DNA from: an uncultured Pseudomonadota bacterium
Lineage (GTDB): Bacteria > SAR324 > NAC60-12
Direction: 5' to 3'
DNA length: 64,000 nucleotides
NCBI GenBank assembly: GCA_964344035.1
Contig: CAYFLK010000001.1
Span: 172-64,171, forward strand
The number at the start of each line of letters is the position of its first letter. The first letter of the stretch is position 1. A program made the translations under genes and the position numbers. Under the pieces are notes generated by a model. It was given only the letters and a program-made list of their open reading frames with translations. It was not told where the DNA came from and did no database searches. Below are positions 11,883 through 55,662 of this stretch, piece by piece.

Positions 11883-12782
11883 TTACTGCAGACAGTTTCT
11901 TAAAGACCGTGCGAGGTTTTCCATGAGGGTGAAATACAAATCCGGTCCGGGTATCAGGTCCGCTCCGAGTGGGTCCAGTTCAGCGATTCTGACACTGGTT
12001 TCGGATGCGATGACTTGAACCAGTTTTGGCGTGAATTGAGGTTCAGTGAAAATGCAACGGACCCCGGAGTCACTGATTAGTTTACGCAGGTTCTGTAATT
12101 TTTTGGCTCCGGGGCTAAATTCAGTCCCGGTGTTGAATTCACCTATTCGCATGAGTCCATAGCGCTGTTCTAAATAAGAATAAGCAGGATGAAAGACAAT
12201 GTATGGCTTTTCGATAACGGGTTTTAATTGCCGTCCTAAACTAGAGTGTAAATCCTGCAGACGCAGTTGCATGTTATTGCCATTGGAATGGTATGTTTCA
12301 GCATGGCCAGGGTCAATCCTGGATAAATGCAAGACGACCTCAGAGACAATGATTTTTGCATTCAAAGGATCCAGCCAGATATGAGGGTCAAATGAATACT
12401 GATGATCATGCTCATCATGTGGGACTGACTCTGAACTTTCCCACTCAAGCAGTTCCATTTTTTCGCTATCCAGCAACGGCACTGTGTTCGCATGAAATGC
12501 TAATGACTTCAATGGTTTTTCAAGAAATTTCTCGAGTGCTTCACCCAGCCAGAAGATGACTTCAGCATTCTGAAGGGTTTTTGCCTCGCTTGGACGCAGC
12601 ACATAAGTGTGGGGGGTGGCAATACCCTTCACCAGTAGCTGAGGTTCTCCGACTCCTTCCATTACACCCGCAACCAGCGAGTGCAAAGGCTTGATGGATA
12701 CAAGCACACTAGGGACCGAGGCGAATGCCATGTTGGCGATCAAAGATGCTGTGAGGATTAATACAGAAATATTGATTTTCAT
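11883..12782 (-). CDS. znuA: zinc ABC transporter substrate-binding protein ZnuA
   Basis: 299 aa with a signal peptide and the cluster-9 SBP fold. His/acidic-rich loop SSESVPHDEHDHQYSFDPHIWLDP. Genomic context with zur, znuC and znuB. Confidence 0.85.
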   Translation of the reverse strand: MKINISVLILTASLIANMAFASVPSVLVSIKPLHSLVAGVMEGVGEPQLLVKGIATPHTYVLRPSEAKTLQNAEVIFWLGEALEKFLEKPLKSLAFHANTVPLLDSEKMELLEWESSESVPHDEHDHQYSFDPHIWLDPLNAKIIVSEVVLHLSRIDPGHAETYHSNGNNMQLRLQDLHSSLGRQLKPVIEKPYIVFHPAYSYLEQRYGLMRIGEFNTGTEFSPGAKKLQNLRKLISDSGVRCIFTEPQFTPKLVQVIASETSVRIAELDPLGADLIPGPDLYFTLMENLARSLRNCLQ

Positions 12783-12811
12783 CGGCAGCCTTGTATTTCA
12801 ATGTGGTTAAA

Positions 12812-12826
12812 TGTAATATTATAACA
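12812..12826. promoter_or_regulatory. Zur-box-like palindrome in znuA/zur divergent promoter
   Basis: TGTAATATTATAACA is a near-perfect inverted repeat. It resembles the Zur operator consensus (TGTTATAWTATAACA). It sits between the divergent znuA and zur starts. Confidence 0.6.
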
Positions 12827-12860
12827 AAAACAAGATCATTATCAATATCGTATTGCCTTC

Positions 12861-13361
12861 ATGAGGGAAAACCGCATGTCCCAGACAACGGATTATCCGT
12901 TTCAGGAACACAACCACCAAAACTGCCAGGCAAGGGTCCTTGCTGAAGCGGAAAGAATATGCCGGTCACGCGGCGCCCGTCTTACCCGCCTGCGACGGCA
13001 TGTGCTGGAGATCGTCTCACGCAGTCATGCTCCGGTTGGAGCTTATGACATACTTGAGCAGATGAATTCAAACGGGCGACGGCAAGCGCTGATCTCTGTA
13101 TATCGTGCCCTGGATTTTCTCATGGACCAGGGGCTTGTGCACCGATTGAGCAGTTTGAACGCCTTCATTGCCTGTATGCTTTCCAGCAGGAGCCATTCCG
13201 CGCTGTTTTTGATATGCCGGAGTTGCCGTACTGTCGCCGAACTTTACAGCTCTACAGTGGAAAAGATGATCAGAAATGATGCTGGAAACGAGGGTTTTAT
13301 TGCAGAAAATCAAATGGTTGAAGTCAGAGGGGTGTGCCGGTACTGTGAAAGGGGGAAATGA
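12861..13361 (+). CDS. zur: Fur-family zinc uptake regulator Zur
   Basis: 166 aa with an N-terminal winged-helix segment ([13 protein letters not shown]...) and C-terminal CxxC pairs (CRSC...CRYC). Adjacent to znuCB; 4-nt overlap with znuC. Start may be Met6 (12876). Confidence 0.8.
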
Positions 13362-14125
13362 CTGCTTCAGAAGATACAGTGTTGATTCAGGCGCGTGATC
13401 TTTCTTTAGGCGATAAGCAGGCAATTATTGACGGAGTTTCCATTGCCGTATTTCCGGGGGAAATTGTTACCGTCGTAGGTCCCAATGGTGCAGGAAAAAC
13501 GACTTTGCTTCGCCTGCTGCTCGGGTTGATTTCACCAGACAGCGGAAAAGTCAACCGGCGCAAGGGATTGAGGATCGGGTACCTTCCACAAAAAATTACG
13601 ATAGATCCGGTATTTCCAATATCAGTTGTGAGGATGATGACGTTGACAACCGGAATCAACCGTGTCGCGGCCTCGAGTGCTTTACTAGAAACCGGTGTGG
13701 AAGCCCTGATTGATGAACCGGTGCACACACTTTCCGGTGGAGAATTTCAGCGTATGATGCTTGCCCGGGCCCTGCTTCGCAATCCTGAACTGCTTGTATT
13801 GGACGAACCCGTGCAAGGGGTAGATTATCTTGGGGAGACGGAAATGTACGGCCTTATCACCAGGCTGCGTGAAAAACGTGGGTGCGGAGTGCTGATGGTG
13901 TCGCATGATCTGCACGTGGTGATGGCTTCAACCGACCGGGTAGTTTGTCTCAACCGGCATGTCTGCTGCCAAGGCCGTCCGAGGGAAGTTTCGCGACATC
14001 CTGAATACCTCAGGCTCTTCGGGATGGAATCCGGGCCAGGACTGGCATTTTATCCCCATCATCATGATCACACCCACCATCTTTCCGGAGAAGTGGAAAA
14101 AGGGCCCAAGGCAGAAGAAACTTAA
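13358..14125 (+). CDS. znuC: zinc ABC transporter ATP-binding protein ZnuC
   Basis: Walker [10 protein letters not shown], signature [15 protein letters not shown], Walker B LLVLDEP. Has a His-rich C-terminal tail, HHHDHTHH. Confidence 0.85.
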
Positions 14126-14139
14126 AGAGGAAGAACAGA

Positions 14140-14934
14140 TTGGTATTCGATGATTTCATCTGGCGCGCCGTCATCGCAGGTGCCGGGGTGGCAATAGCCG
14201 CGGGTCCTCTGGGTTGTTTCGTGGTCTGGAAAAGGCTTGCCTACTTCGGTGACACCATGGCGCATTCCGCGCTGCTTGGCGTGGCCCTTGGCTTTATGCT
14301 TGGAATTGAGCCGATGTTCGGCGTAATCGCCATCGGCATGGCCGTCGCAGTTTCACTTTCTGTTTTCATGCGCCAACGCAAACTGGCAAACGACACAGTG
14401 CTGGGCACTCTTTCGCATACGTCACTGGCCCTCGGCATTCTAGTCATCAGCATGATGACTTGGGTGCGGGTGGACCTGATGGGATACTTGTTCGGAGACA
14501 TTCTCGCGGTCACGCGCATGGACCTGTTCAGGATCTTCTTGGGAAGTGCGCTGGTTTTGATCATCCTCATCCGCTTTTGGCGTCAATTGCTGGTGGTAAC
14601 TCTTGACGAGGAACTGGCGCGAGCTGAGGGACTGCCAGCATGGCGGTTCCAGATTTTGCTGATGCTGATTATAGCCGGAGTGATCGCACTGGCAATGAAA
14701 ATCGTCGGCATTCTTCTCGTCACATCCCTGCTGATTATCCCCGCGGCTGCTGCAAGGCGTTTCAGCCGCACCCCGGAACAGATGGCGTTCGGCGCCGTTC
14801 TCATCGGCAATCTATCCGTCGTGCTCGGCATCCTGGCGTCTTTGCATCTTGACACCCCAGCCGGACCTTCAATTGTCGTAGCAGCAATGCTGTTTTTTGT
14901 TTTTGGACAGGTCCCTCTTGGACGCCTTTCCTGA
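14140..14934 (+). CDS. znuB: zinc ABC transporter permease ZnuB
   Basis: 264 aa, about 8 TM, ABC-3 family pattern. Immediately downstream of znuC. Confidence 0.85.
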   Translation: MVFDDFIWRAVIAGAGVAIAAGPLGCFVVWKRLAYFGDTMAHSALLGVALGFMLGIEPMFGVIAIGMAVAVSLSVFMRQRKLANDTVLGTLSHTSLALGILVISMMTWVRVDLMGYLFGDILAVTRMDLFRIFLGSALVLIILIRFWRQLLVVTLDEELARAEGLPAWRFQILLMLIIAGVIALAMKIVGILLVTSLLIIPAAAARRFSRTPEQMAFGAVLIGNLSVVLGILASLHLDTPAGPSIVVAAMLFFVFGQVPLGRLS

Positions 14935-15035: not shown

Positions 15036-17552
15036 TCAACGAGACAAACCGGCATCAGGACCATAGGGTTTGATGAACACAATCAGCCTCGGAAGAAGGG
15101 TCAATGCTGCAACCAGAGCAATCAGCATGGCAAGCCCGGTGAGGAGACCGAAATAAATGCTCGGGATGAAGTTAGAAAGCACGAGGATGGAAAAGCCGAT
15201 GATCACCGTGATGGAAGTGTAGTACATGGCATAACCGATGCTTCCGTGGGCGCGGTGCATGGTAGCGGAATAATCGCGGTCTGTTCCGAATTCATGCTGG
15301 AACCGGTAGATGTAGTGGATTGTGTTGTCCACGGCAATCCCCATGCTGATCGCTGCAATGGTGATGGTCATCAGGTCCAGGGGGATCCCTGCCCACCCCA
15401 TGAATCCCAGCACGACACCAATGGAAAGCAGGTTCGGAAAAAGCGCGATGAGCGAAATTGTTACCGAACGGAAGAGGATCAGAAACATTGCGAACAGTGC
15501 CGCAACAACCGCTCCGAGGGTCAGGATTTGTGAATTGAACAGGCTTTGCAGCATGTTGTTGTAAAGTACAAGCAGGCTGGCCAGATGAGTCCGCTTTTCA
15601 GGCAGATTCAGCTCATTTTTCAGTCCGCCGCGGATTTTCTTGAGCAGTTCATTGCGTCGCAGGTCAGGTTGGGAATCACGGACACGCACCGAGACACGGG
15701 CCTGGTTGTTTTCCACTGAAACATAGGGCGAAAGGATTATGTTGCGGAATTCTGCAGGCAGTTCGTTGTAGACGAGAGCGAGCAAGAAATTGTCCAGGGG
15801 TTTTCCTTCATTGAGCTTTCTGCCGACTTTGAGGAGGGTCGCCAGTGAGAGGACCTTCCCGGTTTCAGGAAGTCCGTCAAGGTAATCGTGCAACTGCTCC
15901 AGTTGTTTCATTTTATCGGTGGTGAACCAGTATTGCGCCTCTCCCTCTGTCTCCGCGAATTCTTCCTCAAATGAATCGAATTCGTCTTCCTCTTCTGCCG
16001 CATTTTCAGTGATTTCTACTTCAGAAAGTAGAGCGGATTCGTCCTCTCCCTCGAAATCGAGGACCACGTCGAGGGTCGTCGTTCCTCCGAGTTGCTGGTC
16101 GATGACCTTCATTCCCTGGTATATTTCTGTCGATTCCTTGAAATAATCGATGAAGCTGTTTTCCACCTTTAACTGCATTGCGCCTCCGACGCTAAGCAGC
16201 AGGACGGTGGCGCTAACCCAGAGGATGCGGTTGCCCTGGCGCTCAGTGAATCTGGCAAAGAACTGTGTCAGCGCAAACTTGGATTCAAAAGAAATGTTAG
16301 GCGTCAACCGCGCAAACTGCATCTGCAGCGCAGGAAATAGAAGGAAGGTCAACATCAGGGAAACCGCGACCCCGGCGCTCATCATCCAGCCGAAATTGAT
16401 CACCGGGAGGATACCGGAGAGAATCAGCGAACTAAACCCGGCAATAGTGGTCAGCACAGTGTAAAGACATGGTTGGGCCATAAACACCACCGTGTCGAGG
16501 ACAAGCTGCCGATGTGATTTTTCCGGTTGGGTGCGGGCCAGTTCCCGGTAACGCACAATCAGGTGGATAGTGATCGCCATGGTGATGATCAACTGCAAGG
16601 AAATGAAGTTTGAGGAAATCACCGTCACTTCCCAGCCGAACATGCCCAGCAGTCCGGTTGTCGCAATCACCGAAAAAGAGCAAGTCAGCACCGGCAGAGC
16701 CACCCAGCGTAATTGGCGGAAAATAAATGTCAGTGTGAAGATCAGAAAAACCAGGACTCCTATGCCGAAAATCTGCAGGTCGTTTTTTATGAAGCTGACC
16801 AGGTCGTCGGCTATCATTGCCAGTCCCCCGAGAAACAGCTCTGAATTCCCCCGGTATTGGTCCAGCAGTGTCCGTATCCGTGCGACGTTTTTGCTTTCCA
16901 CGACGCGCATCTTGTCCCGATGTGCCTTGTATTCAGCCTCTACCCTTTCATATTCCAGTTCCTCCCGCCCGCTCAGAATTCCGGCTTTTTCCTTGCGGCG
17001 CAGTTCATCCCTGCGTTCGCGCAGCTCCCGGTTGACATGGTCGTCATGGAGATTGACAATCAACGCGGTGGTTTTGAAATCACTACTGACCAGGTTGTCC
17101 TGGTAGACAGGACTGCGCAGGAATTCCTGTTTAGCCAGTTCGCGTTCAATTCCCGGGGATTCCAGCGTGGGTATGTTTTCAAGCAGTTCCTTCACCGGCT
17201 TCGGAGGACTTTCAAGCAGGGGCACATTGAGAATAGAGGTCACCGATTCCACGCGCTCCAGTTTTTCGAGGTCGCGGCTCAGACTGCGGATCGTCTCCAG
17301 CGTATCGTCGGACAGCAGATCGGTTTCAGGAGTGAATGTGACGACGAGGAAATCCGGGGTGTAGTAACGGTTGCTGATAAGCCGGGTGTACTCCAGGTCT
17401 TTGTCGTCTTCAAGCAGCAGCGTTTCCGATGAGGCGTCGATTTCGAGTCTGCGTGCCTCGAAACCCAGGAAGGCGACTGAAATGAGGATCAGCAGGAGGA
17501 CGGTTTTGGGATATTGGAGGATAACCCTGCCGTAAAAATGGCGGAGGTTCAT
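15036..17552 (-). CDS. MMPL/RND-superfamily transporter (HpnN-like lipid exporter family)
   Basis: 838 aa with two TM bundles, each preceded by a large periplasmic domain. The second periplasmic domain carries a strongly acidic insert, EITENAAEEEDEFDSFEEEFAETEGE. 4-nt overlap with upstream mlaC. Confidence 0.7.
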   Translation of the reverse strand: MNLRHFYGRVILQYPKTVLLLILISVAFLGFEARRLEIDASSETLLLEDDKDLEYTRLISNRYYTPDFLVVTFTPETDLLSDDTLETIRSLSRDLEKLERVESVTSILNVPLLESPPKPVKELLENIPTLESPGIERELAKQEFLRSPVYQDNLVSSDFKTTALIVNLHDDHVNRELRERRDELRRKEKAGILSGREELEYERVEAEYKAHRDKMRVVESKNVARIRTLLDQYRGNSELFLGGLAMIADDLVSFIKNDLQIFGIGVLVFLIFTLTFIFRQLRWVALPVLTCSFSVIATTGLLGMFGWEVTVISSNFISLQLIITMAITIHLIVRYRELARTQPEKSHRQLVLDTVVFMAQPCLYTVLTTIAGFSSLILSGILPVINFGWMMSAGVAVSLMLTFLLFPALQMQFARLTPNISFESKFALTQFFARFTERQGNRILWVSATVLLLSVGGAMQLKVENSFIDYFKESTEIYQGMKVIDQQLGGTTTLDVVLDFEGEDESALLSEVEITENAAEEEDEFDSFEEEFAETEGEAQYWFTTDKMKQLEQLHDYLDGLPETGKVLSLATLLKVGRKLNEGKPLDNFLLALVYNELPAEFRNIILSPYVSVENNQARVSVRVRDSQPDLRRNELLKKIRGGLKNELNLPEKRTHLASLLVLYNNMLQSLFNSQILTLGAVVAALFAMFLILFRSVTISLIALFPNLLSIGVVLGFMGWAGIPLDLMTITIAAISMGIAVDNTIHYIYRFQHEFGTDRDYSATMHRAHGSIGYAMYYTSITVIIGFSILVLSNFIPSIYFGLLTGLAMLIALVAALTLLPRLIVFIKPYGPDAGLSR

Positions 17553-18154
17553 GACTCCTGCTCCCGGGGTGTTTTCAGTTCCTCGAGCAGTACGTCAAAT
17601 TTGTGTTTCTTCAGGACTGCGGAAAACTGGGTTCGGTAAGTCTGAATGACGCTAACTCCCTCCACGTCCAGGTCATAAACAAGCCAGCCACGTTTCTTGT
17701 TTTTGTAAAATTTGAATATTATTTCGTAGCTGTCTCCCTTGCTCAGCAGGTATGTTTTCAACTGTACACGCCCTTTCTTGATTTTTTTTGCGTCATCCAG
17801 CAATACCTTTTCATCCGTATAGATGTCGAGTTTTTCGATGTAGAACTGCTGGATACGTTTGACAAACAATTCAGTGAACTCACTGCGCTGAACCGGATTC
17901 AGGGTTTTCCAGGTTTTCCCCAGGCTCAACCGCGACATCAGATTGAAATCAAAAAATGTGTTTGCTTCTTCAATGATGCGGTTGTTGCGTGTTGGTTTGT
18001 CAAGGGACTTGTCATTCAACAAGGCGACCACGACATTGACTTTTTCCTTGGTCATCCGGTTAATTTCCGCGGTTTCATTTGCATAGAGCAATGATGGGGA
18101 AAAGAACAAACACAGGGCAATGATCGAACTGTTTTTAAATTTGTGCATAATCAC
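17549..18154 (-). CDS. mlaC: phospholipid-binding periplasmic protein MlaC (Ttg2D family)
   Basis: 201 aa with a signal peptide. The C-terminal block WLVYDLDVEGVSVIQTYRTQFSAVLKKHKFDVLLEELK aligns with E. coli MlaC ...[35 protein letters not shown]. Confidence 0.8.
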   Translation of the reverse strand: MIMHKFKNSSIIALCLFFSPSLLYANETAEINRMTKEKVNVVVALLNDKSLDKPTRNNRIIEEANTFFDFNLMSRLSLGKTWKTLNPVQRSEFTELFVKRIQQFYIEKLDIYTDEKVLLDDAKKIKKGRVQLKTYLLSKGDSYEIIFKFYKNKKRGWLVYDLDVEGVSVIQTYRTQFSAVLKKHKFDVLLEELKTPREQES

Positions 18155-19218
18155 TCCGATATTTTTTTGATACGATTCTGTTCATAAAAATCCCTCAGAA
18201 AGAGGTACCAGTCGAGGGCATCCTTTTTCAGACTTTGGTACTCACCTATGTGGAGAGATGTTTCGTTTACTACTTCAACCACCTCAACCCCCAGTTCCCG
18301 GTAGAAGTCCGGGTGATAGGCCAGCCCTCGTGGGACGTTTCGGTTGAACGCCCGTTGAGGAATACTTTCCTGATGCAGCGGTTCCATCTGCTTGTCCGGA
18401 TACATGCTGAAAGTGTCGCGAAGGTTCGACGGTCCGAGAAAAGGCAGCACTATGTGAAACCCGCCACCGACTCCGTAATACCCCAAGGTCTGGCCGAAAT
18501 CTTCCTCGTGCTCTTCCAGTCCAAACCAGGATTTTGCCGGGTCGAAAAAACCGAGCAGGCCGATGCTGGAGTTGATGGTGAAACGCAGGGTTTCTTCTCC
18601 GGCATTAATGAGCTTCAACTGCAAGAGGTTGTTGACGAACCGCACGGGAAACAGCATGTTGTCAAAAAAACGGTTCACAGCCAGCCTTCCTCCTTGTGGA
18701 ACCGCCCAGCGGTAACCCCGTGCAACCGGGTCGAGTACCGAAAGGAAAAGCCAGTCGTTGAAATCCGTCATAACCCGGTTGTATCCGCTCAGAGGGTCAA
18801 GGATTTCATTGGCGGAGGGATCGCTGAATTCATCTTCGAAATCATCGCTGAAATCATCGCTGAAATCATCGCTCAACCCGTCTTGTTCCTCTTCCTGATC
18901 CGCGACACCCTGCATGTTCGTGTCTGTCTGGGCAAATAATGTGCGGGATGAGCGAAAACGGGATTGGTACACCGGCAAATTTAATTTCGCTCTGTTTTGA
19001 ATTTCCGCAAAGTTACTTTCATCCAGGGCAGTTCCTGATTTGCTCACAAAGGCAATCTGAAATTTTGAAACGTGCTCCCCGGCTTGCTGTGTGAGTTCAA
19101 CTACAGAGGGCGCGGCATGCAACCATGGTCCTTGAAAAAGGGAACATACCAGTAACATAGGAATCCAAACAAGCCTGAAGCAACCACACCCCCTGATAGA
19201 TTGTTGTTCGGGATTCAC
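18151..19218 (-). CDS. mlaA: outer-membrane lipoprotein MlaA (VacJ family)
   Basis: Core DPLSGYNRVMTDFNDWLFLSVLDPVARGYRWAVPQ...TLGYYGVGGGFHIVLPFLGPSNLRD matches the MlaA/VacJ signature (DPLEGFNR...FGSTLGHYGVGYGPYVQLPF). Acidic repeat DDFSDDFSDDFEDEF lies upstream of the core. 4-nt overlap with mlaC. Confidence 0.85.
   Translation of the reverse strand: MNPEQQSIRGCGCFRLVWIPMLLVCSLFQGPWLHAAPSVVELTQQAGEHVSKFQIAFVSKSGTALDESNFAEIQNRAKLNLPVYQSRFRSSRTLFAQTDTNMQGVADQEEEQDGLSDDFSDDFSDDFEDEFSDPSANEILDPLSGYNRVMTDFNDWLFLSVLDPVARGYRWAVPQGGRLAVNRFFDNMLFPVRFVNNLLQLKLINAGEETLRFTINSSIGLLGFFDPAKSWFGLEEHEEDFGQTLGYYGVGGGFHIVLPFLGPSNLRDTFSMYPDKQMEPLHQESIPQRAFNRNVPRGLAYHPDFYRELGVEVVEVVNETSLHIGEYQSLKKDALDWYLFLRDFYEQNRIKKISE
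18826..18873. repeat. 12-bp tandem repeat (4 units, first degenerate) inside mlaA
   Basis: gaattcatcttc / gaaatcatcgct x3 on the plus strand. It encodes the SDDF/SDDF/SDDF/EDEF acidic repeats in MlaA. Confidence 0.8.
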
Positions 19219-19419: not shown

Positions 19420-19812
19420 ATGCTTCATCATTTTCACAAGCAACAGACAATGGAAATACTTGAAATACTCATGATTGGCGGTGGCACGGGGATGGTCCTG
19501 TCCATGCTCAGTATTGCCATCATCAATTCCAGCAACGCGGAGCAATATCCGCTCGGAGGGTTCATGCCGGCGCTCTGGATGGTGTTTGACCTGGGAGGGT
19601 CATCTCAGCTAGTCGAGGGCGGCTGCCTGGTTCTGGGGGGGATGCTTGGCTATTACTTTATACTTTTCCTTTGGGGGGGGCAGGCAGCGACATTCCGCGG
19701 TTTGATACCGGAAAAGCATGGTGAAGATCCAAAACAACACGAAAACACCAGTCCTTCCGACGAAACAAGCCGGGGAGTGATAACAGGCAAAAAGCTGACT
19801 GATTTTCTTTAA
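19420..19812 (+). CDS. hypothetical small membrane protein (weak call)
   Basis: 130-aa ORF in a 700-bp gap, with two hydrophobic Gly-rich segments. No recognisable motif, so it may be non-coding. Confidence 0.3.
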   Translation: MLHHFHKQQTMEILEILMIGGGTGMVLSMLSIAIINSSNAEQYPLGGFMPALWMVFDLGGSSQLVEGGCLVLGGMLGYYFILFLWGGQAATFRGLIPEKHGEDPKQHENTSPSDETSRGVITGKKLTDFL

Positions 19813-32259: not shown

Positions 32260-34069
32260 TCATTCAGAATTTGCGCGCAGTTTTGCGGTTTCCACAGTGT
32301 TTACCGTTCCGTCAGAATGCATTGAAACGCGGTAGTTCTGTAATGCTGATTCTGACGACACCATTTCATTGCGGACGTCTTCCGCGATCAGTTCCGGTTC
32401 ACGATCCAGAGGGTCCCCGAACCCGCCGCCTCCGGGAAGTTCAAGACAGAGTCGCTCATTGCGGGGAATGGTCTGTTCCCCTTTGGGGTTGAGAGTTTTC
32501 CCGGAAGCAAGTAGGACTTTCCCCGCCCAGCCGTCCATGCCTCCGTCCCGTCCACGGGGAGGGTGATGAACCCGGTCAAACATCGCCAGTACATTGAACG
32601 GTATCCCGTGCAATCCGCCGATTTCCATAACCTGGCCCAACCCCCCCCCGCCAGCGCCCCGGGCCTCCTGAATCAGGCCGGAATTCCTTGCGCCAAAACA
32701 CCACCGGGGCCACATTTTCTGTGGCTTCCACGGGCATTGTGCGTACTCCGCTTGGAAAAGCGGTAGCGGAAAGCCCGTCCTTGGTGGGGCGTGCCCCTGT
32801 ACCCCCGCTGTTGAAGGTGACAACTGTGAATTCCTTCACCGTTTCTTTGAGTTTTCCCGGCTCCCCCTGGATTTGGTAGGAGCCGCCGCCACGCAACTGA
32901 GGGTTCCAGATGGTTCCGACACCCTCCGCGGGCATTCCGGATTGAATCGTGTTTTGCCGGGAAGATTTTTTTTCTCCATGTATATTTGTATTTTCATTGA
33001 GATATTTTTTCGATGCACGGTGTAAGCAGCCGAATACAAGATCAGGAAGCATGTGACCTATCACGTGTCGGATGGCTACTGGAGAAGGCCGGGGGGCGTT
33101 GAGGATGGAACCTTCAGGAATCATGGTACGGATCGGTTCAAGGGACCCGAAGTTGTTTGGCACGTCCGGCGCCACCATGCATTTTATCGCGAAGGCGGTA
33201 TAAGCCCTGGTGTAGGCGGGGGGAACGTTGATCCCTTATCCGCTGGCGGGTGACGTGCCGTGATAGTCCACATGCACGGTATGGTCTGCAATAGTCAGTG
33301 CGGCATGTAATCGTACCGGCTGATCATAACCGTCAATATCCATAGTATTTTCCCATGTCCCACTGGGAAGTGCTTGGATTCGCTGCCGGGTAGCCTCCCT
33401 TGAGGTATCGACGATGTGATCCGACAAACCGGCCAGGGAATCGAGTCCGAACTCGCTCATCATCTCTCTCAGTCTATGACAGCCCTTCTCATTGCATGCA
33501 GCCAGAGAAAACAGGTCTCCCTGAACCTGAACCGGTTCCCGCACATTTGCACGCACAATTGCAAGCAAATCCTCATTTACCTCTCCACCCCGGAACAGGG
33601 GCAGAATCGGGATGTTCAGTCCTTCCTCGAAAACCTGTCTTGCATCCGGCCCGAACCCGCGACCGCCGATGTCAACCACGTGAGAAGTGGAAGCAAAAAT
33701 GCCTACAGGAATACCCTGATGGAATGCGGGTGAAACCGCAGTGAAATCATGTAGATGGCCGGTCGCCAGCCAGGGATCGTTTGTCAGGTAACAGTCTCCT
33801 TTCGACATGCCCTCCAGAGGATGGCGTGCCAGGAAATGCTTCACCGATTCCGCCATCGAATTGACGTGTCCAGGAGTCCCGGTCACTGCCTGGGCCAACA
33901 TCCGCCCCTTCACATCAAAAACCCCGGCGGACAAATCGCCAGCTTCACGCACCGTGGTGCTGAATGAGGTGCGTATCAGCGTCTGAGCCTGTTCCTCGAC
34001 AACTGAAATCAGGCGGTTCCACATCACCTGGGTTTGAATTATATCGAGAGAATCCGGTGTTTCCATCAT
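32260..34069 (-). pseudogene. hyuB: hydantoinase B/oxoprolinase (HyuB) gene disrupted by two frameshifts
   Basis: HyuB homology is split over three frames. ORF 33236-34069 holds the N-terminal part (...TSFSTTVREAGDLSAGVFD...). ORF 32576-33178 holds the middle. ORF 32260-32823 holds the C-terminal GGGGFGDPLDREPELIAEDVRNEMVS. Frame changes coincide with G6 (33218-33223) and C9 (32641-32649) homopolymers. Confidence 0.65.
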
Positions 34070-35539
34070 GCTGCGCCAGTGAAGGTATATTTTGGTTTTG
34101 AGTCGGTTTTTTCAAGAAACAGGTTTCCCTTTGAATCTACAGATGCTTCAAACGATTTTGGTACAATGGTGGTGGTGTCTCTTTCGGAGATGACCGCCGG
34201 TCCTTTAATTTTGAATCCCGGTGAGATGCCACTGCGTCTGTATACTGGGACGAGAATGTAACTGCCTGATTCCGGATCAAAAAAGTCTCTGTAATGCTCC
34301 AGGACGTTTTTTTGCAAAGAAGGAGTACTCCGGGATGTTTCAGATGGGTACTCTGATTTTGACAACAAACCAGTACGGGATTCTGAAATGCTCAAGGACC
34401 AGCTCAGAATTTCTATGTCCACATTCGGGATGACACGTCCATACTGTGAGGTGTACTCGTTTTCAAATACATCCTGCAAATCATTCAGGTTATTTATTGC
34501 GAGTCTTGTCAGGGGCAGGTCTACCGCGATTTCATGTCCCTGTCCCGTGTAACGCATAAAAGCGCGGCGCTTTTCCACAAGCTCGCCTTGAGGTTGGCAG
34601 CTTTTGACTACTGCCAATGCAATCTCCTGCATTTCCGCAAACATGGAATTGACGGCAGCGGGATTGAATGTGGAAATGCGCTGGTAGAGACTGCGCACGA
34701 TTTCGTAAGCGGACGGAGCACACAGGAAGCCGAAGCATGCTGGTCCGGGTTCCGAGCCGGCGCTTTCCGGCCCCACCTGGATTCTGTCCAGGGAATCTAT
34801 TTGCGCGATGGATCCTCCTCCCGCCCCGATTTCAACCATTTCTATCACGGGTATGCGAACTGGTAGCCCGCTACCTTTCTTGAAACGGTAAACCCTGGCG
34901 ATTTCAAACTGTCTTCCGCCCTGCGGTTGTCCATCATCGATGAAACATATCTTTGCGGTGGTCCCACCCATGTCGAAAGAGAGTACATGATCGAGCGAAT
35001 ACTGTGCGGCCAGTACACTGGCAAACATGGCACCGCCTGTGGGTCCGGATTCCACCATCCTGATTGGGAACCGGCGAGCGGTTTCCACAGTGGCAAGACC
35101 TCCTCCGGAAAGCAAGAGGAACAGCGGGCATGCAAATCCGGATTCTCTCAGCCTGTGTTCCAGCCGTACCAGGTATCCGGAAATCAATGGCTGGATGTAA
35201 GCGTTGGCCGCCGTGGTCGAAAACCGCTCGTATTCCCGCATTTCCGGAGAAACTTCAGAAGATAGGGAAATCCGCATTTCCGGGAAGCGTTCGAGGACCA
35301 AGCTTTTGATGCGCTGTTCATGTGCAGGGTTCATATACCCGTGGAGCAGGCAGACGGCAAGGCTTTGCACCTTCTGTTGTTGGAGCAATGGAAAAAGCGC
35401 CATTAGCGCATCTTCATCCAGAGGAAGCAGGACTTCTCCGCCGGCGCGTATGCGTTCCGGAACAGGAAAGCGTGAATGCCTGGGAATAAGCGGGATCAGT
35501 GAAAGTCCCCCCGATATCTGCCCCGATTCGTATCGTCAT
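34066..35539 (-). pseudogene. hyuA: hydantoinase A/oxoprolinase (HyuA) gene with N-terminal deletion and frameshift
   Basis: The 445-aa ORF begins inside the Hydant_A_N domain (ERIRAGGEVLLPLDEDAL...AVCLLHGYMNPAHEQRI...SLSSEV...REYERFSTT). The true N-terminus MTIRIGADIGGTFTD lies upstream at 35539, in another frame. A C6 run sits at 35507-35512. About 90-100 residues between GGTFTD and PLDEDE are absent. Confidence 0.6.
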
Positions 35540-44748: not shown

Positions 44749-45603
44749 TCATGCTTTGTTCCGCATTGTGGCCGTGTTCCTGAAGAAAAATATGATCAGC
44801 CCAACGAAAATAAACTGCCGGCAGAACCCGATAAAAACCTGATCTACCAGCAACAGCGGTTCAAGTTGCTGAAAATTGGCGAATGCCGGCGCAAACTCTC
44901 CGAGAACAAATGCCAGAGAACCTATTACAACAACCTGTTCTACTATGCCGCGAAGAAAAACTATACATACCGACCAAACGAGCATGGTTAAAATCATTCC
45001 ATAAAGCGCAAGCAGCAGTATTTTAGCTGATGCCGGCATTGGCGGAAGGTTTAGAAACTCCTGGGTCCGCTCCAATAATCCGGTTGATATCCAGGTTTCG
45101 TCGAGCCATGCCTGCAATCCCAGGAACAGTCCGACATATGCCGCTGAACACGCCGCCAGTTTAATAATCGACAACGGGTTAATTTGTGCAAACAGCCTGC
45201 GTTTCAATAATCCCAAACCGACCTGATTTTTGGCCGGTGGAAGAAGAACGGTTGCCAAAACCGCCATGAAAAGGGCGGCGCCTGTCTCGGCCCACCAGTT
45301 TTGCCAGTAAGCGGTATACATGGGGTTGCCCCAGACAATGTGCAGCACGATTTTTCCGGGGGATCCCATCACAAACAGGATCAGTGAAATCATCACGAAA
45401 CCGGCAAAACGTTGCCAATAAATCATTTTTGCCAGAGGACGCAAGGCAAAACCGAGCAGTACTCCCGCCAGAAACTGCATCATGAACTCCCGTTCGGATG
45501 CCATTGGCGCTTCCAGCATTTTGAGCAGTAGTATTTTAGCGATGGCATAACCTGCCCCCATTGAAGTCGGGGCCAGATATTTTCCTAACCCGGATTGCAG
45601 CAT
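44749..45603 (-). CDS. hypothetical integral membrane protein
   Basis: 284 aa, about 8 hydrophobic helices, no recognisable motif. Confidence 0.45.
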   Translation of the reverse strand: MLQSGLGKYLAPTSMGAGYAIAKILLLKMLEAPMASEREFMMQFLAGVLLGFALRPLAKMIYWQRFAGFVMISLILFVMGSPGKIVLHIVWGNPMYTAYWQNWWAETGAALFMAVLATVLLPPAKNQVGLGLLKRRLFAQINPLSIIKLAACSAAYVGLFLGLQAWLDETWISTGLLERTQEFLNLPPMPASAKILLLALYGMILTMLVWSVCIVFLRGIVEQVVVIGSLAFVLGEFAPAFANFQQLEPLLLVDQVFIGFCRQFIFVGLIIFFFRNTATMRNKA

Positions 45604-46600: not shown

Positions 46601-47842
46601 TCAGAATGTATGCTGGTAGGATATTTGTCCACCGTCCCAGATGACACGGAAGAATTCATCCAAATCCGTGGTGAATTCGTCAATATTCCAGGTTGTAGAA
46701 AACACCAAATCCGCTTCATCGTTCAAATGCGAAAGCACCCAGCTAACACGCAGCGCGGACTCAACGCGGCGTGTACGCAGGTCTTCAACAGAGGAGGCGA
46801 TGTAATCAGTCGCTTGTTCAGTATCACCGATGTAGAAACCATATTCCCAGCCGGTGTTCGCGGATAGCTTGTGAATGAGAATGCCGTAAAGCTGGAGAGT
46901 CCAGAGATGGTAATCATAACTTTCTTCATCGCTTTGATGCTGGCGGAAAAGGTTCCGGATTCGATCCTCCCTGACTCCGATGGTTGCGTGCAGGCTTTCA
47001 TTATAGGGCTGCAGCCAGTAAAAATCGGCGGAGTGGTATATCATCTGTTGAGCGCGGTTGTCTTCCTTCACACTGGAAAGGGGAGTTTCGCGGCTCTTGT
47101 GAAAGTTAAAGCTCTGCCAGGTGACTCCCACCAAGGCGCGGTCTCGAAAATGGTAATCCAGCACTCCCCGTGCTTCATTTCCAAGGTGGGTGAATGTCAA
47201 TCCTTCAGTGGGAAAAACCTGTTTAAGGGGATAATCTTTCTGCAAGCGGATGCGTGAGCGCCATGGCCCAAGCAGCACTGCCGCTTCGAGGATGTCTTCG
47301 ACGGGGTGCGGATCATAATAGGAGTCATCGTAGAAGTTTTTTTCATTATAAAACAGGTCCTGGCTGATTTGCTGTAATCGCAGGTAATTCCATGGACGTC
47401 GACCAAGGGTGAGAGCCCCCCCTTGATCGGCGTAACGTTTGTCATATTCAGGCATGCCCACGAAAGAGAGGCCAAGCATATTGAAAGGACGCCACTCTAC
47501 ATCGATCAGGTAACGAAACGGTTTTATGAAGAAAAATTCATCTTGCAAAAAGTGCAACCCCACCGATGCGCCGGGGGTGATTTCTTTGTGGAATTTTATC
47601 TCAAGGTAATTGTAAAGCAGGTCCAGTCCAATGCTGCCGCCGCTTGAACGCCAGCCGTTATCGCTGGCATACCATTCCTCCTCTTGCAGTTTATGAAATT
47701 GATATTCTTTCAAGTCGAGAAAGTTTTCCTGCATGTGATACGAAGGATTAATCCGGCGCACATCATCAAATGCTCGCACGTACTGCATGCAACCGGCCGC
47801 GAGTATCAGGCAAAAGGTCTTGTAAATCTGCTTCAACCGCAT
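46601..47842 (-). CDS. hypothetical secreted protein, probable outer-membrane beta-barrel
   Basis: 413 aa with a signal peptide (MRLKQIYKTFCLILAAGCMQYVRA). Aromatic-rich alternating pattern and a C-terminal ...SYQHTF ending in Phe, as in OMP beta-barrels. Confidence 0.4.
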   Translation of the reverse strand: MRLKQIYKTFCLILAAGCMQYVRAFDDVRRINPSYHMQENFLDLKEYQFHKLQEEEWYASDNGWRSSGGSIGLDLLYNYLEIKFHKEITPGASVGLHFLQDEFFFIKPFRYLIDVEWRPFNMLGLSFVGMPEYDKRYADQGGALTLGRRPWNYLRLQQISQDLFYNEKNFYDDSYYDPHPVEDILEAAVLLGPWRSRIRLQKDYPLKQVFPTEGLTFTHLGNEARGVLDYHFRDRALVGVTWQSFNFHKSRETPLSSVKEDNRAQQMIYHSADFYWLQPYNESLHATIGVREDRIRNLFRQHQSDEESYDYHLWTLQLYGILIHKLSANTGWEYGFYIGDTEQATDYIASSVEDLRTRRVESALRVSWVLSHLNDEADLVFSTTWNIDEFTTDLDEFFRVIWDGGQISYQHTF

Positions 47843-50180: not shown

Positions 50181-52115
50181 CTACCTGAGGTCGGCCTCTG
50201 ATTCTGAACTCTGAAGTTTCCGGATAAGCCCAGCGTACACCCCTTCGATTTGCATAAGCGCCTCATGCTTCCCCCGCTCGATCACTTTCCCTTCTTCTAC
50301 AACGAGAATCAGGTCCGAGTGCCTGATGGTGCTGAGGCGGTGAGCGATTGCAATGACGGTTTTGTCCCGGAATATCCTTTCAATTGCACGCTGGATCAAT
50401 GATTCCGTGACGGAATCCACCGCGCTGGTTGCTTCGTCCAGCACAATCATTTCGCTCTTCCCTGCGATAGCTCTTGCAAACACCAGCAGCCGCCCTTCTC
50501 CGGCGGAGAGATTGCTGCCGTTTTGCGTGAGAATGTATTCAAACTTGCCTGGCAAACGTTCGATGAAACTGTCCGCGTATACGTATTTTGCCGCCTCCTT
50601 TATCTGCTCATGGGTAATGCCGGGGCGCTTGAGACTGATATTGAAACCGATTGATTCGGCGAACAGGAAAGAATCCTGCTGCATCAACGATATCATGTGG
50701 TTCAAATGGGATCGTGGGATTGTCGACAATTCTATGCCATTCAGGCGGATGGAACCTTGATAATCCGTATACATCCTGGTCAGTATGCGGACGATTGTGG
50801 ACTTTCCTGAACCGGTGGGCCCGACAATCGCGATGCGATTGCCTTTTTTCAAAGTGAAGGAAATGCCCTTCAACACCCATTCCGCTTCCTCGGAATAACG
50901 GAACCAGACATTTTCAAATACCAGTTCTTTAAACTGGCTGAAACTGTTTTCTGGTAAATAGTTTAGTTTTTTCGAGTTATTCCCGGTTTCGAAGTCCTCT
51001 GGCATCTCTCTAAAAAAACGGTATATATTTTCAAGCGAAGACAACCCGCGCTGGAATACGGAAATCTGCTGGGTAAACTCGCGGATGGGGATGAAAATAC
51101 GGTTCAGGGTGTTGATGAATCCAACCAGGATGCCGAGAGTGACCATTCCTTCGAGTATCCTTCCGGCTCCGTACCAGATCATCAAACCCAATGCTACTGA
51201 GATTACTCCTTCAATCACAGCAAACAGGGTTGCATCATAAAAATTAGAATGGTTTTGTGCGTGCAGGAACCTTCGCGTTTTATGCTTGAAACGCTTCTCC
51301 ACCTTGTTTTCTGCTGCATAGAGCTGGATCGTTTTCACCCCGTTCAGGCATTCTTGAAGATACCCCGTCGCTTCAGCCAGGGTTTCACGCGTGAGATTGT
51401 AGTGGAAGCGCAGTCTTCTGCGTAAAAAGCTGGTGATCAAGTAAACGGGGGGAATGATCAGCAGAACAACCAAAGTCAACCTCCAGCTCAGGGAAAACAG
51501 TAGGATAAGCAGCGCCGCGGTTTTCAGCAGATCGGTGATGACATTGAGTACGCCAACCGCCAAGGTGTCGTTCAATGCCTCCATGTCGGTGGTCACACGG
51601 GTCAGGACCACTCCGATCGGACGCTGGTCAAAAAAACTTCTTGGCAACCGCAGCACATGAGAAAAGAGGTCTGTGCGCAAGTTGCTGATTGTCAACTGTC
51701 CGGTTTTCTGTAGCGAGAAAGTATACAGCGAGTCAGCAAGGTATCCGGACAGCATGGTTAAGCCGAGAATTCCGGACATGAGGTACAGGCCTTCCCAGTC
51801 GCCTGGCATCACGTAATCGTCAATGATTCCGATTATCAACCAGGGGATCAGCAGAGTGGCCCCAACCGAAAAAGGAACAGTGCCTATCCCGAGGGCCAGC
51901 AGTTTCCAGTGTGGAGCCAGGTAGCGCAGGAAATACTTGAGGAGTTTCCAGTCACTGATTTTAAAAACAGGCGGGGGAAATACTGACGGTTCGGAACCCT
52001 CGACAGTCCACTGGCTGTTTCCTGGCTGCGTACCAAACTGCTCTTGTTCATTGTCATCAGGCTGTCGCAATTTAAAGGATGAAATACCTGCAGGATTGGC
52101 AGCTTGATCAGCCAT
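50181..52115 (-). CDS. ABC transporter permease/ATP-binding protein (exporter)
   Basis: Walker A GPTGSGKST, signature LSAGEGRLLVFARAI, Walker B MIVLDEATSAVD. The ORF is open to 52244, but the start is placed at Met44 (52115) to avoid a 137-nt overlap with the upstream aminotransferase. Confidence 0.8.
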   Translation of the reverse strand: MADQAANPAGISSFKLRQPDDNEQEQFGTQPGNSQWTVEGSEPSVFPPPVFKISDWKLLKYFLRYLAPHWKLLALGIGTVPFSVGATLLIPWLIIGIIDDYVMPGDWEGLYLMSGILGLTMLSGYLADSLYTFSLQKTGQLTISNLRTDLFSHVLRLPRSFFDQRPIGVVLTRVTTDMEALNDTLAVGVLNVITDLLKTAALLILLFSLSWRLTLVVLLIIPPVYLITSFLRRRLRFHYNLTRETLAEATGYLQECLNGVKTIQLYAAENKVEKRFKHKTRRFLHAQNHSNFYDATLFAVIEGVISVALGLMIWYGAGRILEGMVTLGILVGFINTLNRIFIPIREFTQQISVFQRGLSSLENIYRFFREMPEDFETGNNSKKLNYLPENSFSQFKELVFENVWFRYSEEAEWVLKGISFTLKKGNRIAIVGPTGSGKSTIVRILTRMYTDYQGSIRLNGIELSTIPRSHLNHMISLMQQDSFLFAESIGFNISLKRPGITHEQIKEAAKYVYADSFIERLPGKFEYILTQNGSNLSAGEGRLLVFARAIAGKSEMIVLDEATSAVDSVTESLIQRAIERIFRDKTVIAIAHRLSTIRHSDLILVVEEGKVIERGKHEALMQIEGVYAGLIRKLQSSESEADLR

Positions 52116-53394
52116 CAAGTTCCTTGATCCGCTTCCTGACTGATGCAAGCTGCACACAGAGGACGAAAACTCCCATAGCTTTTTCGACTTCATGCAGGGA
52201 TGGGAATGTGGGGGCAAGACGGATATTGGAATCATGCGGATCAAGACCGTAGGGAAAAGTAGCGCCGGCAGGTGTGAGTTTTACTCCGGCTGCAGCGGCA
52301 AGGCTTACAATTTGAGCGGCCGTACCGGGTAGTGCATCGAAAGAAATGAAGTACCCTCCTTTGGGGTTACTCCATGTTCCCATTCCTTTGCCGTTCAGAT
52401 TTTGCTCCAGGTGGTGTTGCACTGCCTTGAACTTAGGCGCCAGCAGCCGCGAGTGTTTGCGCATGTGAGCGCGCACGCCCGCAAGGTCTTTGAGGAAGCT
52501 GACGTGACGCTGCTGATTCAGTTTGTTTGGTCCAATCGTCATCACTCCCAGTCTTTTGCGGAAGTGTTCGAGGTTTTCGGGAGACGCGCCGATGAAGGAA
52601 ATGCCCGCTCCAGCAAAAGTGATTTTGGAAGTCGAGGCGGTGAGAACCAGAGAATTCTCGGTGCCGTGGACACGGGCACGGTCCATTACGTTGTCCAGTT
52701 CCGGAGGTTGATCATCTAGATCATGGACGGCATAGGCGTTGTCCCACATAACCCGGAAATGTTTCCCCGCGATTTTCCCCAGCGCAGCTATCCTGTCAAC
52801 TGTTTCCATGGAAAAAACATGTCCGGTTGGGTTGGAGTATTTGGGCACACACCACATTCCCTTGACTGAAGGATCTTTACTTGCCAAGGATTCGATTTGA
52901 TCCAGATCGGGACCATATTGATTCCATCCGACGTTAATCATCCGGATTCCCAGTTCTTCACAAATCGTGAAATGCCGGTCATATCCGGGAACAAGGCAGA
53001 GAAATTTGATTTCTCCTTCGTCTTTCCAGGCGGTTCCTGCTCCAAGAGGACCATGATTAAAGGCATGCAGCATGTATAGGTACATCAGCGTAAGGCTGCT
53101 GTGATCCGCGGCCATCACTTCCTCGGTCCGGAGTCCAAGCAGTTGCGCTCCGAGCTGCCTGGCCGAAGGTATCCCGTTGATTCCTCCGTAATTTCGCAAA
53201 TCTGTTCCGTCCTCCAACTGCATGTTTTCATTCAGCAGACCTTCCATCTGTTCAGAAAGATCCAGTTGATCCGGACCCGGTTTGCCTCTGGTCAAATCGA
53301 GTTTTAACCCTGATTTTTGATAGTCAAGGAAACGTGAATAGAGCGCTTGTTCTCCGGACCGGAGCTGTTCCAGGTTCATGTTATTTAGTTCCAT
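52108..53394 (-). CDS. putative PLP-dependent aminotransferase (class I/II fold, Asp_aminotransf/PF12897-like)
   Basis: 428 aa with LDLTRGKPGPDQLDL near the N-terminus and PLP-Lys in TASTSKITFAGAGI. Confidence 0.65.
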   Translation of the reverse strand: MELNNMNLEQLRSGEQALYSRFLDYQKSGLKLDLTRGKPGPDQLDLSEQMEGLLNENMQLEDGTDLRNYGGINGIPSARQLGAQLLGLRTEEVMAADHSSLTLMYLYMLHAFNHGPLGAGTAWKDEGEIKFLCLVPGYDRHFTICEELGIRMINVGWNQYGPDLDQIESLASKDPSVKGMWCVPKYSNPTGHVFSMETVDRIAALGKIAGKHFRVMWDNAYAVHDLDDQPPELDNVMDRARVHGTENSLVLTASTSKITFAGAGISFIGASPENLEHFRKRLGVMTIGPNKLNQQRHVSFLKDLAGVRAHMRKHSRLLAPKFKAVQHHLEQNLNGKGMGTWSNPKGGYFISFDALPGTAAQIVSLAAAAGVKLTPAGATFPYGLDPHDSNIRLAPTFPSLHEVEKAMGVFVLCVQLASVRKRIKELDG

Positions 53395-55144: not shown

Positions 55145-55662
55145 GCCGAAAGATCCATGTGCCGGTGGTTTCCAGATTCAGTATGAAACAGGTGGAAGCG
55201 TTCCATTGAATGGAAGAATGCATGGAAGGATTCATCCTTGCGTTCGATTTGCAGTTCCCGGGAACTTTCGCTTCTAATTTTCAACTGAAATTCGAGAATC
55301 GCATCATTCTGGATCCATGGTTTGAGAAACCGGGGCCATTCAACCAGTGTGAGGCCCTCATTCAGGATCAGGTCTTCGCGGTCAAAGTCATCCATTTCCG
55401 TGGTGTTTTCGATTCGGAATAAATCAACATGACTGATATCAAACTTGCCGGGATAGCGGTTGACAATGGTGTAGGTGGGAGAAATCACCACCTCCGGATT
55501 CACCCCGAGTCCGGAGCATATTGCCTTCACCAGGGTGGTTTTGCCAGACCCCATTTGCCCCCAGAGCAATACGATGCTGCCTTTGGGCAGGTTCCTGCCG
55601 ATTGCCCTTCCCCATTGTTCAGTCGTCTCCAGCGAATCCAGTATCAGAGATAGTCGATGCAT
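55141..55662 (-). CDS. tsaE: tRNA threonylcarbamoyladenosine biosynthesis ATPase TsaE
   Basis: P-loop LWGQMGSGKTTLVKAI, then SPTYTIVNRY as in YjeE/TsaE. C-terminal extension of about 20 aa. Confidence 0.8.
   Translation of the reverse strand: MHRLSLILDSLETTEQWGRAIGRNLPKGSIVLLWGQMGSGKTTLVKAICSGLGVNPEVVISPTYTIVNRYPGKFDISHVDLFRIENTTEMDDFDREDLILNEGLTLVEWPRFLKPWIQNDAILEFQLKIRSESSRELQIERKDESFHAFFHSMERFHLFHTESGNHRHMDLSA

Follow-up and report, generated by a model that had tools for sequence, protein, structure and literature searches.

The window analyzed here, a 64,000-nucleotide stretch of a contig from an uncultured SAR324 bacterium (CAYFLK010000001.1 of assembly GCA_964344035.1), carries at positions 15036-19218 three adjoining minus-strand genes. 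They code for homologs of MlaA and MlaC, the outer-membrane and periplasmic components of the Mla lipid-trafficking system, and for a transporter of the resistance-nodulation-division (RND) superfamily. We found this trio to be a biologically real, deeply conserved, and selectively maintained unit, which is seen in at least six phyla and in two distinct gene orders. Its products probably constitute a single tripartite envelope lipid-shuttle module, comprising an RND protein driven by the proton motive force (PMF), an MlaC-like carrier, and an MlaA-like protein at the outer membrane. Both this architecture and the hypothesis of anterograde transport are already present in the preprint literature (2025 and 2026), and the function is unproven. 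The present analysis adds the range of phyla involved, the existence of two gene orders, evidence that excludes membership in the hopanoid system, a motif shared between the RND and MlaA-like proteins, and the Cys-less MlaA-like proteins of SAR324. An earlier, sequence-only reading of the window had proposed that an HpnN-like RND exporter takes the place of the MlaFEDB complex in this operon. Its domain assignments are borne out by our analysis, in which the trio is a maintained unit without a hopanoid gene context; equivalence to HpnN and the lipoprotein status of the MlaA homolog are not.

A tightly coupled three-gene operon

The genes of the trio, with positions numbered from the first nucleotide of the window, are as follows:

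15036-17552, minus strand: RND gene of the MMPL/HAE3 type; 838 amino acids; matches Pfam MMPL with 117 bits, E=1.1e-33
17549-18154, minus strand: mlaC-like gene; 201 amino acids from a GTG start or 199 from an ATG at 18148; matches Pfam PF05494
18151-19218, minus strand: mlaA-like gene; 355 amino acids; matches Pfam PF04333 with 212 bits, E=8e-63

The three open reading frames (ORFs) lie exactly where the sequence-only reading had placed them, and searches with the hidden Markov models (HMMs) PF04333, PF05494, and PF03176 recovered all three families that it had named. The stop codon of the mlaC-like gene and the start codon of the RND gene overlap as ATGA, with a GGAG upstream, and the stop codon of the mlaA-like gene overlaps the GTG start of the mlaC-like gene as GTGA. 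However, an equally plausible ATG start is available two codons downstream of that GTG, with a GGAG placed 5 nucleotides upstream, and from this start the mlaA-like and mlaC-like genes are separated by a gap of 2 nucleotides in place of the 4-nucleotide overlap. Hence, the 4-nucleotide overlaps that had been claimed for both junctions hold for that between the mlaC-like and RND genes, and for the other only if the GTG is used. Whichever start is used, the three genes are tightly coupled in an arrangement of translational coupling. A scan of the operon for promoters and terminators returned nothing useful above the expectation from shuffled sequence.

To place the operon in its context, we ran Pfam scans on the 40 other non-nested ORFs of at least 150 amino acids across the window, and on the DNA visible beyond both of its edges. 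As the sequence-only reading had noted, none of the 40 ORFs contains an MlaD, MlaE, MlaF, or MlaB domain; neither these ORFs nor the visible flanking DNA has a squalene-hopene cyclase (SHC) or Hpn domain, and the Mla domains are likewise absent from the flanks. In particular, hopanoid (hpn) genes, which might have been expected immediately outside the window had the RND protein been part of a hopanoid cluster, were found in neither visible flank.

Conservation of the trio across phyla

The RND subfamily is a large one, with 3,291 representatives (after clustering at 50%) recovered at E<=1e-30. For the gene neighborhoods, we used a profile-guided scan with one genome per GTDB species and retained the best 80 loci, which come from many phyla and have RND identities of 46-67%; the partner genes were called with HMMs built from the SAR324 MlaA-like and MlaC-like proteins. 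The sequence-only reading had put forward conservation of the neighborhood as a check on its proposal, and in 37 of the 80 loci both an MlaA-like and an MlaC-like gene directly abut the RND gene. With this co-conservation and with no hpn genes in or beside the window, neither of the two outcomes that the reading had named as refuting it was encountered. The complete trio is present in at least six phyla, namely SAR324, Campylobacterota, Nitrospirota, Desulfobacterota, Planctomycetota, and Elusimicrobia. Two gene orders are seen: mlaA-mlaC-RND (A-C-R) in SAR324, Campylobacterota, Nitrospirota, and Elusimicrobia, and mlaC-RND-mlaA (C-R-A) in Desulfobacterales and in Planctomycetota, including Brocadiaceae and Scalindua. 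The occurrence of the same linkage in at least six phyla and in two orders indicates that it has been maintained by selection rather than as inherited synteny. Among the Campylobacterota, the A-C-R order is found at loci L039, L045, L046, L048, L050, L052, L053, L055, L057, L069, L077, and L078, and these include the cultured organisms Malaciobacter canalis (L039), Sulfurospirillum arcachonense (L053), and Aliarcobacter cryaerophilus (L057). In the C-R-A loci of the anammox Planctomycetota (L037, L042, and L043, from Brocadiaceae and Scalindua), a gap of about 400 nucleotides precedes the mlaA-like gene, and the RND proteins have long acidic inserts; the presence of the trio in anammox bacteria is of interest in view of their unusual ladderane lipids.

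The same picture emerges at closer range. Within SAR324, the RND orthologs with 81% and 67% identity are likewise preceded by MlaA-like and MlaC-like genes, and the trio is observed in three contexts whose flanking genes are wholly different, which indicates that it travels as a unit. When the ORFs from the neighborhoods of the 80 loci were clustered, the RND, MlaC-like, and MlaA-like families were the only ones to recur; no recurring biosynthetic, hopanoid-related, or fourth transport gene was detected by this clustering. Over the 37 complete trios, the protein distance matrices are congruent, with correlations of r=0.84 for RND and MlaC-like, r=0.71 for MlaC-like and MlaA-like, and r=0.60 for RND and MlaA-like proteins, values that were reached in 0 of 2,000 permutations. 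This congruence shows co-inheritance of the three genes, but is not in itself evidence that their products touch. A "Rosetta-stone" fusion of an MlaC or MlaA domain to the RND protein was seen in none of 390 homologs.

The RND protein

The best match of the RND protein among the NCBIfam models is HAE3 (TIGR00921), at 152 bits against a cutoff of 352, which is not reached. An AlphaFold2 (AF2) model, with a mean predicted local distance difference test (pLDDT) score of 84.7 and a predicted TM-score of 0.80, has 12 transmembrane (TM) helices and two periplasmic domains. Foldseek searches with this model retrieve MmpL4/5, MmpL3, HpnN, and NPC1-type proteins at TM-scores of 0.61-0.70 and 11-16% identity, and in sequence the protein is remote from every solved RND structure (best E of about 4e-8 in a search of the PDB). 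The predicted fold places it in the MmpL/HpnN/NPC1 structural class. The description of the protein as HpnN-like in the sequence-only reading is accurate at the level of fold and superfamily, but it cannot be read as equivalence: the HpnN equivalog model NF052374 gives 67 bits against a cutoff of 1,100, TIGR03480 gives 79 bits against 752, and the structural model shows no special closeness to HpnN among the Foldseek matches. The features that we could delineate in the protein are listed below:

15279-15368, minus strand: TM10 of the RND protein, residues 729-758, with GIAVD742, His746, Tyr747, Arg750, and Glu754; candidate second half of a proton relay
15933-16046, minus strand: predicted disordered acidic insert in the second periplasmic domain, residues 503-540, with pLDDT below 50; contains DEFDSFEEEF
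16530-16619, minus strand: TM4 of the RND protein, residues 312-341, with an invariant His330 and a near-invariant Glu337; candidate half of a proton relay
16857-17039, minus strand: charged helical hairpin of the first periplasmic domain, residues 172-232, with helices at 172-189 and 195-232 in the AF2 model

The residues named in TM4 and TM10 are those in invariant and near-invariant columns of the family alignment, and the limits of the helices were taken from the AF2 model. The conservation of H330, D742, H746, and Y747 across the RND family, that is, of a His in TM4 together with an Asp/His/Tyr set in TM10, would fit an active proton relay that couples transport to the PMF. The acidic insert is the sole long disordered segment of the second periplasmic domain in the model. 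Its core, EEEDEFDSFEEEFAETEGE, spans residues 520-538 (window positions 15939-15995) and corresponds to the highly acidic stretch that the sequence-only reading had pointed out.

The MlaC-like and MlaA-like proteins

The MlaC-like protein matches PF05494 over residues 39-194 with 129.9 bits against a cutoff of 26 (E=1e-37), and its matches in the PDB are to structures of the MlaC/Ttg2D family. It has a predicted N-terminal hydrophobic signal peptide (...SLLYA/NET), and the mature part is basic, with an isoelectric point (pI) of about 9.4. The protein falls short of both specific models that might have assigned it to a known system, with 45.6 bits against a cutoff of 195 for the NCBIfam MlaC equivalog NF011697 and 67.9 bits against a cutoff of 160 for HpnM (TIGR03481). 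Among the MlaC-like proteins of the clade, 23 of 25 match NF011697 (best E of 1.5e-19) and all 25 match HpnM (best E of 8.9e-23). The slightly higher scores on HpnM than on the model for the E. coli equivalog hint that the carriers associated with RND proteins may be kin to each other.

The MlaA-like protein is equally clear at the level of the family. Its MlaA domain, at residues 141-350, scores 212 bits with PF04333 against a cutoff of 25, and PDB entries of MlaA are matched at E=7e-16; the NCBIfam MlaA equivalog NF011672, at 69.6 bits against a cutoff of 375, is not reached. The protein had been described as an outer-membrane lipoprotein, and here we differ: its N-terminal hydrophobic signal has no canonical lipobox (it reads LLVC, with Val at position -1), and the closest SAR324 orthologs have ordinary signal peptides without any Cys. 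The lipobox Cys is present in most of the other lineages that bear the trio, and the Cys-less SAR324 proteins raise the question of the route by which they reach the outer membrane. The protein encoded in the window additionally has an N-terminal extension of about 60-80 amino acids with a hydrophobic segment of its own (residues 1-80; 18979-19218), which is absent from the closest SAR324 orthologs (285-296 amino acids).

An acidic-Phe motif shared by the RND and MlaA-like proteins

The acidic insert of the RND protein is part of a wider pattern. In every insert of a partner-linked RND protein, an acidic run is punctuated by Phe residues, two to four in number and two to three positions apart, as in DEFDEFDEFD, DEFDAFEEEF, and DDFENEFDE, with a family consensus of DDFDxF. 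The MlaA-like partners from across the phyla have the same kind of motif in a flexible region directly before the MlaA domain. The elements concerned in the SAR324 proteins are as follows:

18820-18873, minus strand: acidic-Phe motif of the MlaA-like protein, DDFSDDFSDDFEDEFSD, residues 117-133 (18820-18870), directly N-terminal of the MlaA domain
Candidate docking peptides of the acidic-Phe type: DEFDSFEEEFAE and DDFSDDFEDEFSD

In the MlaA-like protein, the motif is encoded by a true 12-nucleotide tandem repeat of 4.5 copies (18820-18873), and it is the element that had been noticed earlier as a DDFS tandem acidic repeat. The two proteins of a locus often resemble each other closely in their motifs: the RND and MlaA-like proteins have DDDFSEFDEF and DDDFSDFDDEF, respectively, at locus L049, and DDFENEFDE and DNFENEFDSEF at locus L069. 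Local alignment of the two motifs within loci gives a mean score of 37.3, compared with 32.7 +/- 1.1 for permuted pairs, and 0 of 10,000 permutations reach the observed value, in a test that is uncorrected for phylogeny. Rigid regular expressions under-count the motif; for its distribution we used only the visual pattern and the exclusivity of DPF repeats, which are present in 12 of 30 RND inserts from loci without partners and in 0 of 37 from loci with them. The partner-less proteins of Cellvibrionales and other Gammaproteobacteria (L058, L061, L063, L072, L073, L075, L081, and L085) have DPF(A/E) repeats at about residues 500-580 of the RND protein, in place of the acidic F-x-x-F motif. Such repeats may mean that these proteins dock a different partner. 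In another RND homolog (P0142, 888 amino acids), the insert has grown to about 100 residues of (D-D/G-x-F)n, and this array, together with the 12-nucleotide repeat in the SAR324 mlaA-like gene, suggests that the motif evolves by tandem duplication.

A precedent for such an element comes from E. coli, where the flexible C-terminal tail of MlaA binds a cleft of MlaC, with a dissociation constant of 57 uM when grafted onto GFP, and the predicted binding site of the MlaD beta6-beta7 loop is that same cleft (PMC10245069). The acidic-Phe motif could have an analogous role, as the element by which the carrier docks at both membrane stations. As an explanation for the motif, purely electrostatic docking on a basic carrier was considered and set aside: the median pI of the partner-linked MlaC-like proteins is 9.2, yet about 10 of 50 are acidic, so charge alone does not account for it. 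The motif on the RND loop and on the MlaA-like linker and the cultured organisms that carry the trio offer testable handles on these proposals.

Proposed mechanism and its alternatives

From the domains, the operon, the linkage, the co-inheritance, and the fold class described above, we infer a physical hand-off, a cargo, a direction, and a mode of energy coupling for the tripartite module. The RND protein in the inner membrane would draw on the proton gradient to pass an amphipathic lipid on to the soluble MlaC-like carrier, and at the outer membrane this carrier would exchange the lipid with the MlaA-like protein. The cargo would most likely be a glycerophospholipid or a lysophospholipid and not a hopanoid, and the most likely direction would be outward, from the RND protein via the MlaC-like protein to the MlaA-like protein. 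The single ground for favoring this direction is that the characterized bacterial pumps of the class export; MmpL3, MmpL4, MmpL5, and HpnN are all described as exporters. How phospholipids are delivered to the outer membrane has long been a question, and there has been dispute over the direction in which Mla transports. If the proposal is true, the pairing of Mla shuttle proteins with an exporter driven by protons would make a natural candidate for outward transport, complementing the AsmA-like bridge proteins.

A more ambitious form of the proposal would have the trio as a widespread (at least six phyla) PMF-powered system for the anterograde export of phospholipids or lysophospholipids. In it, the carrier would be recruited at both stations by one acidic-Phe motif, (D/E)(D/E)F-x-x-F..., a counterpart of the MlaA tail and MlaD loop that changes by tandem duplication. 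We put this forward as a speculation, and in all its parts together it is unlikely to be right.

Several observations weigh against the module as we envisage it. Neither partner adjoins the RND gene in about 30 of the 80 loci (mainly from Cellvibrionales and other Gammaproteobacteria, Pelagibacterales, and some Desulfobacterota), and only an MlaC-like neighbor is present in about 12, several of which are ended by contig ends; these counts imply that the RND protein can work without adjacent partners. The contact between the RND and MlaC-like proteins is itself something that we infer, and the correlation of distance matrices is expected for any vertically co-inherited genes. NPC1 and some other relatives by fold accept lipid from a soluble carrier, and hence the direction cannot be read from the fold. 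Our view of mlaFEDB and SHC genes extends to the 64-kb window and its visible flanks. The orthology of the SAR324 RND protein to that of the Campylobacter jejuni operon, Cj1373, is likely, but is reached indirectly, through the related Campylobacterota discussed below. Finally, a C. jejuni mlaA mutant makes more outer-membrane vesicles, which fits the classical retrograde role of Mla (PMC6549495).

This last observation leads to the best placed of the alternatives, although we regard it as an improbable one: that the genes are merely co-located, with the MlaA-like and MlaC-like proteins serving an MlaFED(B) complex encoded elsewhere, in the retrograde direction, and with the RND protein exporting an unrelated hydrophobic substrate under shared regulation. 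C. jejuni, with its Mla-type mutant phenotype, encodes mlaEFD at another locus and a single MlaA/MlaC pair (PMC6549495), MlaEFD is near-universal in diderm bacteria (PMC10665443), and the partner-less RND loci are readily accommodated. However, co-location without a hand-off sits poorly with an adjacency that is kept in at least six phyla despite a rearranged order, with stop/start overlaps and no other recurring family, and with an acidic-Phe motif that tracks between the RND and MlaA-like proteins within loci. Further, the C. jejuni MlaC (CjMlaC) is reported to be independent of the native Mla system of E. coli.

It is still more doubtful that the same tripartite module runs inward, with the MlaA-like protein extracting lipid from the outer membrane, the MlaC-like protein carrying it, and the RND protein inserting it into the inner membrane by means of the proton gradient, as in the sterol transfer by NPC1/NPC2. 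The presence of NPC1, NPC1L1, and NCR1 among the Foldseek relatives and the retrograde direction of the canonical transfer from MlaA to MlaC (PMC10245069) speak for such a pathway. Against it, a second retrograde acceptor in the inner membrane would be redundant where mlaFED coexists, as in C. jejuni; the bacterial members of the class are the exporters named above; and no sequence feature discriminates the direction.

An exporter of hopanoids or other polycyclic terpenoids, that is, a divergent HpnN-HpnM-HpnS, would have precisely the architecture proposed for that system (PMC12324291) and would suit the preference of the SAR324 carrier for HpnM over MlaC (68 versus 46 bits, with matches to HpnM in 25 of 25 clade members), yet it is highly improbable, since the HpnN, HpnM, and MlaC thresholds are all failed and Campylobacterota, in which the trio is common, are reported to lack SHC (PMC12324291). 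The shortfall is not confined to the protein in the window: the best E of HpnN among 25 RND proteins is 3.5e-37, and that of HpnM among 25 MlaC-like proteins is 8.9e-23, both far weaker than a cutoff score would give. Genes of the shc and hpn kind are not among the families that recur across the 80 loci, and our literature search found no paper that treats SAR324 together with hopanoids. A lipid-shuttle module with a glycerophospholipid or lysophospholipid as its probable cargo is the interpretation that we retain.

The neighborhood of the operon and other features of the window

The 3' end of the RND gene is directly adjoined by a complete zinc-uptake cluster (11883-14934), in which znuA on the minus strand is divergent from zur-znuC-znuB on the plus strand; this neighborhood is not kept beside the other SAR324 trios. 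Pfam scans identify creatinase/amidohydrolase genes on the opposite flank. An ORF of 130 amino acids (19420-19812, plus strand) is divergent from the mlaA-like gene; it is unmatched in Pfam and NCBIfam, contains hydrophobic segments, and is absent beside the trio in relatives.

Elsewhere in the window, the only match of Rfam and tRNA scans is a tRNA-Gln (63071-63145), which has no bearing on the operon. In a hydantoinase/oxoprolinase region (32260-35403), the B subunit is split into at least two ORFs, at 33236-34069 (profile positions 1-267) and 32576-33178 (profile positions 290-439), and of the N-terminal domain the upstream HyuA ORF (34066-35403) retains a fragment only; the region could be a frameshifted pseudogene or reflect an assembly error. 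The ORFs at 44749-45603, 46601-47842, and 55657-56319 (284, 413, and 220 amino acids) match no Pfam family at E<=1e-5. An ABC exporter ORF, as called from a TTG start, and the aspartate aminotransferase ORF upstream of it have 137 nucleotides in common (50181-52244 and 52108-53394). The true start of the exporter gene probably lies downstream, because the gene is called shorter, at 644 amino acids, in a related contig (L088).

Comparison with known systems

The closest described counterpart is the operon of C. jejuni in which mlaA (Cj1371), mlaC (Cj1372), and an RND gene (Cj1373) are encoded together, with an overlap between the mlaC stop and the RND start (bioRxiv 10.64898/2026.08.28.747810). 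According to the same preprint, both phospholipids and lysophospholipids are bound by CjMlaC, whose action is independent of the E. coli Mla system; the transport proposed there is anterograde, from the RND protein via MlaC to MlaA. In that organism, mlaEFD is located elsewhere in the genome, beside which the mlaA-mlaC-RND operon is an additional locus (PMC6549495; bioRxiv 10.64898/2026.08.28.747810). The SAR324 operon has the same three families in the same A-C-R order, contiguous and co-oriented, with the same overlap of mlaC stop and RND start. It differs in phylum and habitat, SAR324 being free-living and marine, and in an MlaA-like protein without a lipobox, with an N-terminal extension and an expanded DDFS repeat. 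Campylobacter itself lies outside the best 80 loci, and the top 120 matches of a query with a Sulfurospirillum-like RND protein are from relatives of Sulfurospirillum and Arcobacter only; a PDB search found no structure of the C. jejuni MlaC. Orthology of the SAR324 RND protein to Cj1373 nevertheless appears likely in view of the A-C-R trios, with 46-52% RND identity to SAR324, of Sulfurospirillum, Arcobacteraceae, and Sulfurimonadaceae. Trios with RND proteins in this range are found in Sulfurospirillum, Aliarcobacter, Malaciobacter, Sulfurimonas, and Sulfurovum, and those of the sister families Sulfurospirillaceae and Arcobacteraceae are 47-52% identical.

A second point of comparison is the HpnN-HpnM-HpnS system, which a 2025 preprint proposes as a route for hopanoids in Burkholderia and other Pseudomonadota (PMC12324291). 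Here too, an RND protein of the same fold class is encoded together with MlaC-family and MlaA-family proteins, and a shuttle from the inner to the outer membrane is envisaged. However, the SAR324 trio falls below the HpnN and HpnM thresholds, lacks synteny with shc or hpn genes, and belongs to a clade that includes taxa reported to lack SHC.

The E. coli Mla system shares with the trio the MlaA and MlaC Pfam families, the principle of a soluble shuttle, and the precedent of flexible elements that dock in one cleft of MlaC (PMC10245069). In contrast, the inner-membrane partner encoded in the SAR324 operon would be a PMF-driven RND protein rather than a complex of ABC and MCE components, and the SAR324 proteins score below the NCBIfam cutoffs for the MlaA and MlaC equivalogs. 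The linker with the acidic-Phe motif also sets the MlaA-like proteins apart: the deposited chains of solved MlaA structures reach the conserved DPL motif at residue 12-14, with no room before it for such a linker, whereas in the SAR324 protein about 105 residues, including the motif, precede it after the predicted cleavage of the signal peptide (about 40 or more in relatives).

MmpL3 and MmpL4/5 are the best structural matches of the RND protein (TM-scores of 0.62-0.70), and they share with it the Pfam MMPL domain and a helical extension in the periplasm, as seen in MmpL4/5, together with PMF-driven export of lipids or siderophores as the likely common mode of action. The identity is only 11-16%, the hairpin of the SAR324 protein is in the first periplasmic domain, and the partners are of the Mla families in place of MmpS or AcpM. 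Taken together, these comparisons lead us to regard the SAR324 module as an orthologous or closely related counterpart of Cj1371-Cj1372-Cj1373 and as a paralogous analog of the proposed HpnN-HpnM-HpnS route. The module extends well beyond Campylobacter, to at least six phyla and two gene orders, as a system distinct from that of HpnN, HpnM, and HpnS.

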